This document shows, one piece after another, positions 2,192-53,665 of a stretch of 64,000 nt of DNA (position 1 is the first letter of the stretch; each line of letters opens with the position of its first letter). The notes under the pieces are model-generated. The model made no database searches, was not told where the DNA came from, and worked only from the letters and a program-made list of their open reading frames with translations. A program made the position numbers and the translations under genes. The DNA is from Candidatus Methylomirabilia bacterium (GTDB taxonomy: Bacteria; Methylomirabilota; Methylomirabilia; Rokubacteriales; CSP1-6): contig JBGPTW010000011.1 in the NCBI GenBank assembly GCA_041490825.1, positions 2,903 through 66,902 of the forward strand. Reading direction: 5' to 3'.

Positions 2192-2883
2192 CGTCCGTCT
2201 GCGCTGGGTACGGCAGCTTTCAGGCACTGTTCGACGTCTCGCTCGAGGTGCGTCCCGGCGAGGCCGTCGGCGTCATCGGTCCGAACGGTGCCGGCAAGAC
2301 CACGCTGATGCGGGTGATCTCCGGTCTGATCCGCCCGACGTCCGGCGCGATCGTGATGGAAGGCGTCGACCTCGTGAAGACGGCGGCGCACCGGATCGTG
2401 GAAGTCGGGGTCGCCCACGTGCCGGAGAGTCGCCGGCTCTTCCCGCGCATGACCGTCGAGGACAATCTCAAGATCGGCGGTTTCATGCCGGCGGCGCGTT
2501 CGAAATTCCGCGCACGGCTCGACGTCGTCTACGAGCTCTTTCCGCGGCTGCGCGAGCGCAAGAAGCAGCTCGCGGGCACCATGTCCGGCGGCGAGCAGCA
2601 GATGTGCGCGATCGGTCGCGCGCTGATGTCCGAGCCCAAGCTGCTGCTGCTGGACGAGCCGTCGGCCGGTCTCGCGCCGGTCGTCGTGCAGCAGCTCTTC
2701 GAGCTCCTGAAGCGGATCCGCGCCGGCGGCCTCACCGTGCTGATCGTCGAGCAGAACGTCCGGCAAGTGCTGCGGGTGGTCGATCGGGCCTACCTGCTGA
2801 AGACGGGAAGCATCCGCGCCGCCGGCACCGCCGGGGAGCTCCTGGAGAGTGAAGCCATCCGCGAGGCCTATCTCGGCGTCTGA
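2179..2883 (+). CDS. livF: Liv-type ABC ATP-binding protein
   Basis: GPNGAGKTT, MSGGEQQM, LLLDEPSAGL. Confidence 0.92.
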   Translation: MLELTSVCAGYGSFQALFDVSLEVRPGEAVGVIGPNGAGKTTLMRVISGLIRPTSGAIVMEGVDLVKTAAHRIVEVGVAHVPESRRLFPRMTVEDNLKIGGFMPAARSKFRARLDVVYELFPRLRERKKQLAGTMSGGEQQMCAIGRALMSEPKLLLLDEPSAGLAPVVVQQLFELLKRIRAGGLTVLIVEQNVRQVLRVVDRAYLLKTGSIRAAGTAGELLESEAIREAYLGV

Positions 2884-30161: not shown

Positions 30162-30233
30162 TGAGGGGCCCCAAATTGGCCCCTCAAACTCCCCAACGTT
30201 CGGAGCGCCCCGGCGAAGCCGTGGCGCTCCTCG
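30162..30233 (+). repeat. two-hairpin REP-like element, copy 5, between convergent genes
   Basis: TGAGGGGCC-CCAAATT-GGCCCCTCA; GGAGCGCC-CCGGC-GAA-GCCGT-GGCGCTCC. Confidence 0.9.
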
Positions 30234-34473: not shown

Positions 34474-34640
34474 TGGGGGCCCCGACATGGCCCCCAGACC
34501 CCCAACGCTCGTCACGCCCCGGCACAGCCGTGGCGCGCCTCGATATCCCCCAACGCTCGTCACGCCCCGGCACAGCCGTGGCGCGCCTCGATATCCCCCA
34601 ACGCTCGTCACGCCCCGGCACAGCCGTGGCGCGCCTCGAT
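34474..34640 (+). repeat. REP-like element, copy 6: one head plus three tandem 48-bp second hairpins
   Basis: CCCCCAACGCTCGTCACGCCCCGGCACAGCCGTGGCGCGCCTCGATAT repeated three times with no spacers. Confidence 0.93.
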
Positions 34641-38910: not shown

Positions 38911-39072
38911 TGGGGGACCCCGAGATGGCCCCCACACCCCCCAGCGCTCGTCGCGTCCCGGCCAAGCCGTGCCGCGCCTCGATGTTCCGAGAGTCGTCAT
39001 GAGGGACCCCGAGATGGCCCCCCGCCTCGATAGTCCGAGGGTTGTCATGGGGGACTCCGAGATGATCCCCCA
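38911..39072 (+). repeat. REP-like element, copy 7: full copy plus two further head hairpins
   Basis: Heads at 38911, ~39000 and ~39048, separated by TGTTCCGAGAGTCGTCA and TAGTCCGAGGGTTGTCA linkers. Confidence 0.85.
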
Positions 39073-40680: not shown

Positions 40681-41697
40681 ATGAAACGAGCTGTCTTCGG
40701 GGCCGTCGCCGTCCTCCTTCTGCTTCCCGCGCTCACGGCTGCCGTTCCGCGGCCGCCGGCGCGGCGGCTCGACCCGAACAAGATCTCGGAAGCGCCGTCC
40801 TACGTCGGCCGCGTGAGGCCCTCGATCGTGGGGCTGAAGGTGCGAGCGGCCGACGATGCGCCGTCGTCGGCGCGGCTCGGCGTGCATCGGTTCGCCAGCG
40901 GCGTGCTGTTCGACGCGCGCGGGTATGTGGTGACCGTGAGCTACGCCGTCATGGACGCCGTCGCCCTCGAAGCCGAGACAAGCGACCGCGGGACGGTGCC
41001 GGCCCGTCTCGTCGCCATCGATTTCGACACAGGTCTCGCGGTGGTGAAGCTGGACGCCGACGGGCCGTGGCCCGCGGCGACGCTCGGTTACTCACGCGAC
41101 GTCAAGCTCGGCGAGCTCACGGGCACGGTCGGTGTCGACGAGGAGAACGACCTGGTGTACGTGACGGGGGAGCTGCGGGCCGTCCGGCGCTTCTCCGCGT
41201 ACTGGGAGTACATGCTCGATCGCGCGCTCTTCGTGTCTCCGTCGAGCCCGTCGTGGGGCGGCAGCGCCGTCGTGGACGCGTCGGGACGGGTCATCGGCCT
41301 CGCCTCGCTCCGGCTCGGCGAGCCGCCATACGTCAATGTCGCCATCCCGGTCGAAAGGCTGCAGGCGGTGAAGGACGAGTTGATCGCGGCCGGTCGCGTC
41401 GTCAGCCATCCACCGCGCCCGTGGCTCGGTCTCTACACGATCGGCGGTGACGACAGCGTGGTCGTGGACGGCTTCGCGGCGAGCGGGCCCGCGCGGGTCG
41501 CTGGATTCAAGCGCGGTGATCGCATCGTGCGCGTGAATGGCGTTGCGGTCACGTCACAGGAGGACTTCTACGAACAGCTCTGGCGTGCTCGGGCCGGAGA
41601 CCTGGTCGAGGTTGCGGTCGAGCGGGCCAACGCGCTCCACGTGATCCGAGTACGTTCTGTCGATCGGTACGATGTGATCGTGCGGCCCAAGCGCTGA
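40681..41697 (+). CDS. S1C/HtrA-like PDZ protein with degenerate catalytic triad
   Basis: SGVLFDARGYVVTVSYAV (His position is Tyr), SPSWGGSAV (no GNSGG); PDZ at the C-terminus. Confidence 0.8.
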   Translation: MKRAVFGAVAVLLLLPALTAAVPRPPARRLDPNKISEAPSYVGRVRPSIVGLKVRAADDAPSSARLGVHRFASGVLFDARGYVVTVSYAVMDAVALEAETSDRGTVPARLVAIDFDTGLAVVKLDADGPWPAATLGYSRDVKLGELTGTVGVDEENDLVYVTGELRAVRRFSAYWEYMLDRALFVSPSSPSWGGSAVVDASGRVIGLASLRLGEPPYVNVAIPVERLQAVKDELIAAGRVVSHPPRPWLGLYTIGGDDSVVVDGFAASGPARVAGFKRGDRIVRVNGVAVTSQEDFYEQLWRARAGDLVEVAVERANALHVIRVRSVDRYDVIVRPKR

Positions 41698-50959: not shown

Positions 50960-52135
50960 ATGGAGAAATTCCGCGGCGTCGATTACTACGGGATCGAAGA
51001 CCTCCTCTCCGAGGAGGAGCGCATGGTGCGTGACGCCGTGCGCGACTGGGTCGAAGTGGAGTTCTTGCCGGTCGTCATCGAGCACCATCGGGCCGGCACG
51101 TTTCCGACCGAGCTGACGCCAAAGCTCGGCGAGCTCGGCATCTTCGGTGCCACGCTGAAAGGCTACGGGTGCGCCGGGCTCAACAACGTCGCCTACGGTC
51201 TCATCATGCAGGAGCTGGAGCGCGGGGACTCCGGGCTGCGCTCCTTCGCGTCCGTGCAGAGCGGGCTCGTCATGCATCCCATCCACGCCTACGGGTCCGA
51301 CGCGCAGAAGGACCGCTGGCTTCCGCGCCTCGCGACCGGTGAGCAGCTCGGGTGCTTCGGTCTCACCGAGCCCGATTACGGCTCCGATCCGGGCGGGATG
51401 AAGACGCGCGCGAGCAAGAAGGGCGACGCCTACGTGCTGAACGGCACCAAGCTCTGGATCACCAACGGGTCGATCGCCGACGTCGCGGTGGTCTGGGCCA
51501 AGGAAGACGACGGCGAGATCTACGGGTTCCTCGTCGAGCGGGGCACACCAGGATTCTCGACGCTCGACATCCACGGCAAGTTCTCGATGCGCGCCTCGAT
51601 CACCTCCGAGCTGGCGTTCCAGGACTGCAAGATCCCGCTCGAGAACAAGTTGCCCAACGTCAAGGGCCTGCGCGGTCCGCTCGGCTGTCTCAATCAGGCG
51701 AGGTACGGGATCGCGTGGGGCGCCATCGGGGCCGCCATGGCGTGCTACGACTGGTCGCTGCAGTACGCCCAGCAGCGCATCCAGTTCGGCAAGCCGATCG
51801 CCTCGTTCCAGCTCGTGCAGCAGAAGCTCGTGTGGATGATCACCGAGATCACGAAGGCGCAGCTCCTGTGCCTCCAGCTCGGCCGATTGAAGGACGCCGG
51901 CAAGCTGCGTCCCCAGCAGGTCTCGATGGCGAAACGTAACAACGTGCAGATGGCCCTCGACACGGCGCGCCTGGCGCGTGACATCATGGGCGCCGCCGGC
52001 ATCGTGGACGAGCACCCGATCATCCGCCATCTGCTGAACCTCGAGACCGTCAACACTTACGAGGGCACGCACGACATCCACACGCTGATCATCGGCCGGG
52101 ACATCACGGGGCTCGACGCGTTTTCAATTAGCTGA
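50960..52135 (+). CDS. gcdH: acyl-CoA dehydrogenase, glutaryl-CoA dehydrogenase-like
   Basis: ELERGDSGLRSFASVQSGL, FGLTEPDYGSDPGGM, TYEGTHDIH. Confidence 0.88.
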   Translation: MEKFRGVDYYGIEDLLSEEERMVRDAVRDWVEVEFLPVVIEHHRAGTFPTELTPKLGELGIFGATLKGYGCAGLNNVAYGLIMQELERGDSGLRSFASVQSGLVMHPIHAYGSDAQKDRWLPRLATGEQLGCFGLTEPDYGSDPGGMKTRASKKGDAYVLNGTKLWITNGSIADVAVVWAKEDDGEIYGFLVERGTPGFSTLDIHGKFSMRASITSELAFQDCKIPLENKLPNVKGLRGPLGCLNQARYGIAWGAIGAAMACYDWSLQYAQQRIQFGKPIASFQLVQQKLVWMITEITKAQLLCLQLGRLKDAGKLRPQQVSMAKRNNVQMALDTARLARDIMGAAGIVDEHPIIRHLLNLETVNTYEGTHDIHTLIIGRDITGLDAFSIS

Positions 52136-52360
52136 GGGGCCACGAAATGGCCCCTCAGACTCCCCCACGCTCGGGACGCCCCGGGACACCCGTGGCGCCC
52201 CTCGACCCCCCACGCTCGGGGCGTCGCGGGACACCCGCGACGCCCCTCGACCTTTCCCCACGGTCGGGACGCCCCGGGACACCCGCGACGCCCCTCGACA
52301 CTCCCCCACGCTCGGGGCGCCCCGGGACACCCGCGACGCCCCTCGACCCTCCCCCACGGT
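52133..52360 (+). repeat. REP-like element, copy 8: one head plus four tandem second hairpins
   Basis: Units end at 52205, 52250, 52298 and 52346 (periods 45, 48, 48); unit 2 has a perfect 13-bp stem. Confidence 0.93.
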
Positions 52361-52920
52361 CTCGGGCGCGTACGCTGCCCGATTACCTCGCGCCGGGACT
52401 CGGCCTCGTGTTCGTCGGAATCAATCCCGGCGCGTACTCGGTCGCGCGCGGCCACTACTTCGCGCGGCCGACCAGCCGCTTCTGGCCGGCGTTTTCCAGG
52501 TCCCGACTGAGCGAGCGTGCCCGACTCGTCCTGGGCCGCGCCACGCTCGGGCCCGAATGCGATGCCGAGCTCTTACGGGCTGGTATCGGTTTCACCGACG
52601 TCGTCAAGCGCACGACTGCCAATGCGGCCGAGCTGACGCCGGCAGACTTCGAGCTCTGGGCGCCGAAGCTCCTGGCGAAGCTGCGCCGGTATCGGCCGCG
52701 AGTCGCATGCTTCCACGGACTCACCGGGTACCGGCCGTTCGTTCGTCTTGCGCTGCGACGCGTTGACACCGAGCCAGCGCTCGGTCCGCAGCTCGATGTG
52801 ATCGGCGTCACGCGGATCTTCGTCGTCCCGAACCCGAGCCCTGCGAACGCGCACTTCACGCCGGCCGATCAGGCCGCCTGGTACGATCGGCTCGCCGAAT
52901 TCATCGGGGGGGCGGCGTGA
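52147..52920 (+). CDS. mug: mismatch-specific uracil-DNA glycosylase (Mug/TDG family) with a repeat-derived N-terminus
   Basis: TLPDYLAPGLGLVFVGINPG, HYFARPTSRFW, GFTDVVKR, PNPSPAN; the only ATG found upstream lies in the repeat head. Confidence 0.85.
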   Translation: MAPQTPPRSGRPGTPVAPLDPPRSGRRGTPATPLDLSPRSGRPGTPATPLDTPPRSGRPGTPATPLDPPPRSRARTLPDYLAPGLGLVFVGINPGAYSVARGHYFARPTSRFWPAFSRSRLSERARLVLGRATLGPECDAELLRAGIGFTDVVKRTTANAAELTPADFELWAPKLLAKLRRYRPRVACFHGLTGYRPFVRLALRRVDTEPALGPQLDVIGVTRIFVVPNPSPANAHFTPADQAAWYDRLAEFIGGAA

Positions 52921-52971
52921 TGATATGATGAAATCGTCATCCAGCCGAGATCGTCCGGGGAGGCCCCACGA

Positions 52972-53196
52972 ATGGCACGGATCAATCTCGAAATAGACGA
53001 CGACCTGAAGCGCCGGGCAAAAGTGAAAGCTGCGCAGGAGCAGCGGCCCCTCACGCAGGTGATCGAAGAGCTCCTCACCCACTGGGTGGAGGCCGGGGAT
53101 ACGGCCGCCAAGCGACGACGATTGCGGCTCGGAGTGCACAAGCTCGGCACGATCGGGACGCTGTCGCGCCGCGAGCTCTATGAAGATCTTCGTTGA
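52972..53196 (+). CDS. vapB: ribbon-helix-helix antitoxin
   Basis: RINLEIDDDLKRRAKVKAAQE; overlaps a PIN gene. Confidence 0.75.
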   Translation: MARINLEIDDDLKRRAKVKAAQEQRPLTQVIEELLTHWVEAGDTAAKRRRLRLGVHKLGTIGTLSRRELYEDLR

Positions 53197-53665
53197 TACC
53201 AATCTCTTCGTATATGCCGTCGACGCTCTGAGTCCCTTCCATCACGACGCGGGATCGTTCTTCGAATCGGTGGCGGAGCGCAACCTCGAACCGCACTACT
53301 CGAACCAGGTGCTCGGTGAGTTCTTCTCGGCCGTCACCAAGCGGGCTGCCCGTCCGCTGAGCCCCACGGTCGCCGCGCGGGAAGCGCTGCGCATGCTCCA
53401 GGCGACGCAGTTGGTGAGACTGCCGATCGACGATATCGCGATGAAGCTCACACTGGCGCTGGCCGGAAAGCATGGGCTGCGGGGCGTCGAGATTTTCGAC
53501 GCCCAGATCGTGGGGACCATGCTGAGCCACGGCGTCGAGGTCCTGTATACGGCCAATGTTCGGGACTTCGCTCGCTTCGACGAGATCGACGTCGTCAATC
53601 CCCTGTTGCCGGCCGGCCCGGGAACTCCACGCGTCGCCGAGAAACGCCGCCGGTATCGGCGGTGA
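53180..53665 (+). CDS. vapC: PIN-domain toxin
   Basis: IFVDTNLFVY, QVLGEF, IFDAQIVG, TANVRDF. Confidence 0.9.
   Translation: MKIFVDTNLFVYAVDALSPFHHDAGSFFESVAERNLEPHYSNQVLGEFFSAVTKRAARPLSPTVAAREALRMLQATQLVRLPIDDIAMKLTLALAGKHGLRGVEIFDAQIVGTMLSHGVEVLYTANVRDFARFDEIDVVNPLLPAGPGTPRVAEKRRRYRR

Follow-up and report, generated by a model that had tools for sequence, protein, structure and literature searches.

How is a gene translated when a repeat element occupies the place of its start codon? This question is raised by the junction between gcdH and mug in the genome of an uncultured soil Rokubacteria. The stretch of DNA analysed, in the following called the window, has a length of 64,000 nucleotides (nt) and corresponds to C11:2903-66902 of a 6.44-Mb assembly (66.8 % GC, 261 contigs, estimated completeness 100 %). 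Between the gene for a gcdH-like acyl-CoA dehydrogenase and mug, which codes for a DNA glycosylase of the Mug/TDG family, lies a repeat element made of a head hairpin and a tandem array of a second hairpin. Based on sequence comparisons, the start of Mug likely lies within this element array, either at ATG 52147 or at GTG 52192, and with slightly less assurance we favour ATG 52147 in the head as the codon that is used. The features of the junction, all on the plus strand and numbered according to the window, are as follows:

50960-52135, plus strand: gcdH-like acyl-CoA dehydrogenase gene, 391 amino acids (aa) (Pfam Acyl-CoA_dh_N, Acyl-CoA_dh_M, Acyl-CoA_dh_1)
52130-52161, plus strand: head hairpin of the repeat element, ATG-type subfamily (RNA fold, family model)
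52134-52139, plus strand: Shine-Dalgarno (SD)-like GAGGGG in the 5' arm of the head stem, overlapping the gcdH stop
52147-52149, plus strand: ATG, proposed start of Mug, at the boundary between loop and 3' arm of the head
52160-52368, plus strand: tandem array of the second hairpin of the element, four full units and a partial fifth (Tandem Repeats Finder, unit alignment)
52192-52194, plus strand: in-frame GTG, codon 16, inside unit 1 and without an SD upstream
52372-52920, plus strand: Mug/TDG-family glycosylase domain (Pfam UDG, 120 homologues, AlphaFold, ratio of nonsynonymous to synonymous substitution rates (dN/dS))
52375-52377, plus strand: CTG encoding the invariant Leu of the TLPD motif, without an SD upstream

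A preliminary description of this DNA, made from the letters alone, had placed the gcdH stop and a GAGGGG followed after 7 nt by an ATG inside the head of the repeat, and both observations were confirmed. RNA folding predicts a head hairpin in which 52130-52142 pairs with 52148-52161, giving a stem of 13 bp with one position bulged and a loop of 5 nt (free energy dG -23.5 kcal/mol, z -6.8). The gcdH stop TGA at 52133-52135 sits within its 5' arm, and the stem takes in the UGA, the GAGG as well as the U and the G of the AUG. GAGGGG and ATG 52147 are separated by a 7-nt spacer (CCACGAA), and the distance from the gcdH stop to the ATG is 11 nt.

Downstream of the head, Tandem Repeats Finder detected 4.2 copies with a period of 48 at 52160-52358. 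Aligning the units places their cores at 52163, 52208, 52256 and 52304, which results in periods of 45, 48 and 48 nt, and extends the partial fifth unit to about 52368. The four units preserve the reading frame, as had been described, and the open reading frame (ORF) from 52147 to 52920 (257 aa, stop at 52918-52920) starts with about 75 residues of PPRSGRPGTPATPLD repeats encoded by the array, fused to the Mug domain. The units have diverged by 5-10 % from each other (2-5 of 44 positions), and unit 2 forms a perfect 13-bp hairpin through two paired changes, as read from the unit alignment; judging from these changes, the array units still look selected as hairpins. The same 257-aa ORF including the array is present in two more assemblies, a contig of GCA_041482695.1 and the Logan assembly of SRR35962390, and therefore an assembly artefact is ruled out. 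The sole difference in the array among these assemblies is a single-nucleotide polymorphism (52188 A>C), which is synonymous and located in the loop of a unit.

The anatomy of the ancestral junction can be read from the orthologues, whose starts were compared as the preliminary description had proposed. The 120 best Mug homologues are mostly 185-200 aa long and have a median of 10 residues in front of TLPDYL, versus 75 in the window; the repeat tail is absent from all of them. The short N-terminus of about 6-12 residues that marks the Mug family is thus replaced by a much longer one in the window ORF. Mug genes of relatives from the same family start with GTG and code for N-termini such as MGYPFPTLPDYL, and in the relative P0001 (88 % identical, N-terminus MSRVPTRATLPDYL) the gene begins 13 nt past the upstream gene. 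The closest relative for which DNA is available, L012, encodes a Mug protein with 84 % identity and without the repeat in a syntenic arrangement of gcdH, mug, a vapB remnant and a heme-oxygenase-like gene. The 3' end of its gcdH is almost the same as in the window, and a TTG overlaps the gcdH TGA (TTGA) as the native start of mug, which is absent in the window. According to these comparisons, the array took the place of the native mug start and about nine codons. A repeat element within 1.5 kb of mug was found neither in 80 metagenome Mug loci nor in the loci of 10 relatives.

Homology to the orthologues starts at T76 (TLPDYL...), possibly at R75, and everything upstream is repeat. T76, L77, P78 and D79 are invariant in 116-120 of the 120 homologues; therefore, the start has to lie upstream of 52372. 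ATG 52147 and GTG 52192 are the only canonical in-frame starts in this region. The statement that no other ATG or GTG precedes TLPDYLAPG was thus wrong, as it missed GTG 52192. This second codon is part of the array too, and the broader claim that the array provides the start of mug stands as far as the native start is lost and canonical in-frame starts before TLPD occur in the array only. GTG 52408, the start chosen by a crude codon-score gene caller, was rejected: it would remove 12 conserved residues including the invariant LPD.

The glycosylase domain is intact. Residues 78-246 of the ORF match Pfam UDG (PF03167, E 2.1e-18), the domain carries the GINPG motif with the catalytic Asn and the NPSPAN motif, and G91-I-N-P94 and P228-N-P-S231 are invariant in 56 aligned sequences. 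In the AlphaFold model, the predicted local distance difference test score (pLDDT) of the domain exceeds 90. Its 182 codons are free of stops and frameshifts, and comparison with L012 yielded a dN/dS of 0.12 at a dS of 0.67. Parsimony analysis of the three closest sequences assigned 8 private residue changes to the window and 10 and 14 to the two relatives, and at columns with at least 90 % conservation the window lineage shows one violation, the relatives two and one. This pattern indicates that the Mug domain is under purifying selection and has not decayed. The divergence among the array units implies that the insertion is not brand new, and a silent mug would be expected to decay over the age of the array.

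The repeat-coded tail was correctly described as basic, Pro-rich and disordered: its 75 residues include 22 Pro and 12 Arg with a net charge of +8, and it is predicted to be disordered (pLDDT 47-62, no secondary structure). The predicted junction between array and domain reads ARTLPDYLAPGL..., and predicted tryptic peptides of tail and junction include SGRPGTPVAPLDPPR, GTPATPLDLSPR and TLPDYLAPGLGLVFVGINPGAYSVAR preceded by AR.

To learn about the element itself, we collected its copies in this genome by iterated nhmmer searches. The family has a consensus of about 72 nt, consisting of the head hairpin and the second hairpin (TGGGGGCCCCGAAATGGCCCCCACACCCCCCAACGCTCGGAGCGCCCCGGGAAAGCCGTGGCGCTCCTCGATT), and the searches returned 545 matches at about 450 loci, 380 of which are single-copy. 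Most copies are intergenic, with 57 of the 545 matches overlapping predicted genes by more than 20 nt, and about one copy in two follows the stop of a co-directional gene, with a median distance of 6 nt from this stop to the beginning of the head. Two subfamilies of heads can be distinguished: 248 of 412 carry an ATG in the loop (GGGGGCCCCGA[A/C/G]ATGGCCCCC), and in the other roughly 164 the loop is shorter (TCGAA) and the ATG is missing. Unit periods in the family are 45-48 nt. Multiples of three were considered as a family rule for the periods and rejected, since only 36 of 78 arrays comply and many have periods of 46 or 47 nt. Of 24 further genera sampled within the same taxonomic family, 20 contain the repeat, at identities to the consensus of up to 97 %; outside this family, 2 of the 16 genomes sampled from the order match, with one match each. 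In Rfam, no family for the repeat was found, with sub-threshold noise as the only output, and a search of this genome for the Y1/RAYT transposase (PF01797) gave no match; the controls of this search were positive. Further copies of the family in the window are located at:

30162-30233: copy of the repeat family
34474-34640: copy of the repeat family
38911-39071: copy of the repeat family

We then analyzed the head ATG as a start throughout the genome. Genes were called with the simple, crude codon-score caller mentioned above (5836 genes, 85 % coding), and ATG-bearing heads with a same-strand gene within 500 nt downstream were scored for the reading frame and for a canonical start of the gene's own. 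Seven genes have coding sequence up to the element and lack a canonical start of their own, and in each of the seven the head ATG lies in the reading frame of the gene:

C63 and C82: two ABC permeases, in which the first downstream start would delete the first transmembrane segment (TM1)
C9: OppD-like ATPase, with head ATG, three 45-nt units and then PLLEVSDLQTHF
C7: solute-binding protein with a signal peptide
C36: GMC oxidoreductase, with the Pfam domain from residue 22, directly past the element
C17: HD-GYP protein, a weaker case
Window: mug

If the one start-less gene that is out of frame is counted as well, at least 7 of 8 genes are in frame, which has a probability of about 0.003 at p = 1/3; for the strong cases only, the numbers are 5 of 6 and about 0.02. 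In all seven fused genes, a co-directional upstream gene ends 11-40 nt before the ATG (112 nt in one of them). GGAG and GAGG are 4-5 fold enriched upstream of starts in this genome, which indicates that SD sequences are used. An alternative arrangement, in which the ORF of the head ends at the downstream start as in MIRU elements, was counted between -25 and +10 nt of that start and discarded: the frame of the head contributed 20 cases and the two control frames 18 and 12, and the six ATGA overlaps are no more than expected by chance.

Other genera provide parallels to the situation at mug. The N-terminus of the C36 GMC oxidoreductase reads MAPQ...APRG directly followed by YDYVIVGAGSAG, with the element abutting codon 3. 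Its orthologue in the genus g15, which is 90 % identical and lacks the element, starts with a GTG overlapping the upstream TGA (GTGA; MTYDYVIVGAG). The OppD-like ATPase has an orthologue with 80 % identity in g15 (G014) with a head directly past the stop of the permease gene, and there the head ATG is in frame via a truncated unit (MAPQRSARPGPVLEVSDLQTHF), compared with three full units in this genome. Kept in frame at two lengths in two genera, this fusion provides the best single piece of evidence for use of the head ATG. In a third genus (G013), the ATPase orthologue lacks the element, and the TGA is overlapped by a CTG only. At this locus (L100, G013:C12, about 2460-2490, minus strand), the ATPase has no ATG, GTG or TTG near the conserved N-terminus, and the overlap reads CTGA. 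A database search for similar tails returned one match, the NUDIX protein P0122 with a head and two units at its N-terminus. The sequence pattern of start donation was thus detected at seven loci in this genome, at one locus in g15 and in one database protein.

How could a start of this kind be used? We propose that a copy of the repeat element entered the gcdH-mug junction, which is a stop/start overlap (TTGA) in relatives, that its second hairpin was amplified to 4.2 tandem units and that the native mug start together with about nine N-terminal codons was lost in the event. Mug would then be translated from the head-loop ATG 52147, which would place a 75-residue repeat-coded tail on an intact Mug domain. 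SD and ATG are present in the head as previously noted, and both are locked in the -23.5 kcal/mol hairpin, which makes free initiation unlikely. As stop, SD and AUG share one very stable hairpin, binding of free 30S subunits should be poor and we therefore infer coupling: a ribosome terminating at UGA 52133 would unwind the 5' arm and expose the AUG 11 nt downstream, and initiation at mug would be coupled to termination of gcdH, as presumably in the TTGA ancestor. The sequestration of SD and start together with the upstream stop in a single hairpin, at a spacing of 11 nt, is the arrangement expected of coupled genes, and the mug junction agrees with either of the two models of translational coupling, RNA unfolding and reinitiation (reviewed in PMC12548453). 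Targets for such an event are common: by the crude gene calls, 774 same-strand gene pairs among about 5800 genes overlap by exactly 4 nt (ATGA/GTGA/TTGA), an unusually high number of potential coupled junctions. A further generalization, to which we give limited credence, is that the ATG-type element might be a self-contained translational coupler that is opened only by a ribosome terminating upstream and that, as a by-product, gives housekeeping enzymes expandable, repeat-coded disordered tails at the N-terminus. As a coupler, the element would settle in stop/start overlaps without silencing the downstream gene.

Several observations weigh against the use of ATG 52147. None of the forward frames of the repeat unit contains a stop, and the in-frame ATG is therefore only about a 1-in-3 event when the mug locus is taken alone; the significance lies solely in the comparative and genome-wide evidence and not in the mug locus by itself. 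The head hairpin hides both SD and AUG. Read in the mug frame, the 75 codons of the array do not show the usage of a gene (score -22), and a close relative with a mug array of different length was not found among the 80 metagenome loci and the 10 loci of relatives. In the genome-wide data, head ATGs showed no frame bias relative to downstream genes (36:29:29), and ATG-bearing heads in tandem gene pairs showed no orientation bias (71 sense versus 73 antisense). Since in addition about 40 % of the heads have no ATG and only about 7 of about 94 ATG-bearing heads with a same-strand gene within 500 nt act in this way, the description of the repeat as a portable translation-start cassette was overstated, and the family as such is not a general start cassette. 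One counter-example was encountered in this genome, the C5 permease, which lacks a canonical start and is not in the frame of its head ATG. In 388 kb sampled from a second genome (G019; 61 heads), no clear additional case came up: the lone candidate is a radical SAM gene that could plausibly start at its own ATG. Finally, the CTGA of the G013 ATPase suggests that near-cognate reinitiation starts exist in the lineage. As to the local structure of the C5 locus (about 40900-41133, minus strand), the DppB-like permease has its own GAGGAG with an ACG 6 nt further on, and ACG or CTC would be its start. Upstream of the gene lie two heads, a degenerate one of the ATG type and one of the TCGAA type; the head ORF ends at a TGA that overlaps the SD.

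Some of these points would suit initiation of Mug immediately downstream of the array, at the near-cognate CTG 52375 or ACG 52372, with the array as an untranslated spacer or only incidentally translated. The non-genic codon usage would be explained, the G013 ATPase with its CTGA and the C5 permease without canonical start would serve as precedents in the lineage, and a CTG start would result in M-PDYLAPGL, about the length of the E. coli Mug N-terminus. This CTG had already been named as the alternative in the preliminary description. We consider it unlikely and keep it as a lower-ranked rival, as the codons at 52372 and 52375 encode the invariant T and L of TLPD, no SD-like motif is present within 20 nt upstream of either of them and the site lies 240 nt of stable hairpins past the gcdH stop, out of reach for termination-reinitiation. 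Furthermore, near-cognate starts predict random frames of the head ATG in start-less genes, in contrast to the 7 of 8 in frame, and the ATPase fusion in G000 and G014 keeps the ATG in frame at two lengths.

The same unit, stop-free in all forward frames, and the likewise open minus strand at the mug array bring up the idea that mug is a recently 5'-truncated, untranslated pseudogene whose frame is open by chance in 67 % GC DNA. Here the 1-in-3 chance of an in-frame ATG, a hairpin that blocks SD and AUG and the dispensability of mug in many relatives, with a match in only 8 of 40 related genomes, would need no further explanation. What makes a pseudogene improbable is the state of the gene: the 182-codon domain is intact with a dN/dS of 0.12 and no excess of lineage-specific or conserved-site changes, after an insertion that is old enough for its units to have diverged by 5-10 %. 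In addition, only one start-less intact gene in this genome is out of frame with a head ATG, and that gene has its own SD. Translation from GTG 52192 in unit 1, giving a 242-aa protein with a slightly shorter tail, receives the least weight of all and appears very doubtful. This codon is canonical, in frame and outside the head hairpin; it lacks an SD upstream and lies in the 3' arm of the unit-1 hairpin, and while every fused locus has the head ATG, most of the others have no equivalent of this GTG. Initiation at ATG 52147 thus remains the favoured reading.

The surroundings of mug and of C36 showed further traces of the element or of gene rearrangement. Between mug and the heme-oxygenase-like gene, the window encodes intact VapB (RHH) and VapC (PIN) proteins at 52972-53665. 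The sequence upstream of and including the vapB start (GGGGAGGCCCCACGAATGGCA, 52950-52975) resembles a degenerate repeat head by eye, and in such a reading the head ATG would be the vapB start. A similar sequence (CTGGGGGTGCGAACATGGCTCAGA, also by eye) is found ahead of the vapB remnant in L012 at 899-925, where only a 32-aa remnant (MAQIVLDVDDDLKQRVEAKAACEGRRELYEDR, 916-1014) is left of vapB and vapC is gone. At the GMC oxidoreductase locus, the genes upstream differ between G000:C36:31948 (L093; small unrelated gene) and G014:C17 (L094; ABC permease), with the repeat element exactly at this breakpoint. Repeat elements may mark or mediate rearrangements.

For genome annotation, these data imply that starts inside the repeat in Rokubacteria/Methylomirabilota are probably real at a defined subset of loci. 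The mug junction represents a natural case in which an abundant hairpin repeat has replaced an initiation region, with the ancestral TTGA, GTGA and CTGA overlaps kept in relatives. If coupling holds true, it would account for the ability of such elements to enter operon junctions at little cost, and tandem amplification of a repeat at the nucleic-acid level could create a disordered tail on a DNA-repair enzyme. If the element indeed acts as a coupler, this would be a route from selfish DNA to new intrinsically disordered protein regions.

A protein architecture of this type is known from human TDG, in which a Mug-fold core carries a long, basic, disordered N-terminal tail that aids non-specific DNA binding. 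The TDG tail is Lys-rich, conserved and regulatory, whereas the Mug tail described here is repeat-derived and lineage-specific. On the level of the repeat, similarities to the REP and BIME elements of E. coli and to REPINs are apparent in the hundreds of GC-rich, mostly intergenic hairpin repeats close to stop codons. In contrast to the situation in REPIN-RAYT systems, this genome yielded no match to a Y1/RAYT gene, its arrays are made of direct repeats running head-to-tail on one strand instead of inverted doublets, and the element has two modules.

Donation of starts by repeats has been described for Neisseria REP2 and for Borrelia plasmid repeats, which provide ribosome-binding site (RBS) and ATG to genes (PMC3184786). 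REP2 is a dispersed stem-loop repeat that, directly upstream of genes, supplies RBS and ATG, and judged from sequence the element studied here would do so at a few loci. Compared by description, REP2 differs in carrying a promoter and in its typical location at the 5' ends of genes, whereas the copies in this genome are mostly found just past stop codons and in either orientation, with about 40 % lacking an ATG and about seven loci serving as starts. Moreover, SD and AUG are locked here in a hairpin with the upstream stop, and the amplified second module would be read as a long tail.

The tandem intergenic units of MIRU (Supply et al., 1997) are thought to insert at start codons, with translational coupling keeping the expression of the downstream gene (PMC12548453, PMC3184786). 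MIRUs are GC-rich units of 40-100 bp with internal inverted repeats, arranged in tandem between operon genes, apparently inserted where a stop meets a start, and with a frame that is open in the same direction as the neighbouring genes, and this resembles the 45-48-nt units between gcdH and mug and the co-directional upstream gene at 7 of 7 fused loci. In contrast, the ORF of a MIRU overlaps the downstream start (-4), whereas the repeat ORF at mug is fused in frame and replaces the start; head ORFs ending in ATGA-type overlaps were at chance level, the host belongs to another taxon and the head is a distinct module. In-frame fusion of repeats to genes is known from RPE of Rickettsia (Ogata, 2000), BOX, BRE and the enterobacterial RU (PMC3184786). 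As in the RPE case, a selfish palindromic repeat joins a coding frame and adds a peptide segment with the fold kept; RPEs insert internally, in contrast to the N-terminal position, the provided initiation codon and the tandem array found here. Start donation is thus known for other bacterial repeats and not for this two-hairpin family, and by its sequence features the mug case appears to blend traits of REP2, MIRU and RPE as a member of none of them.

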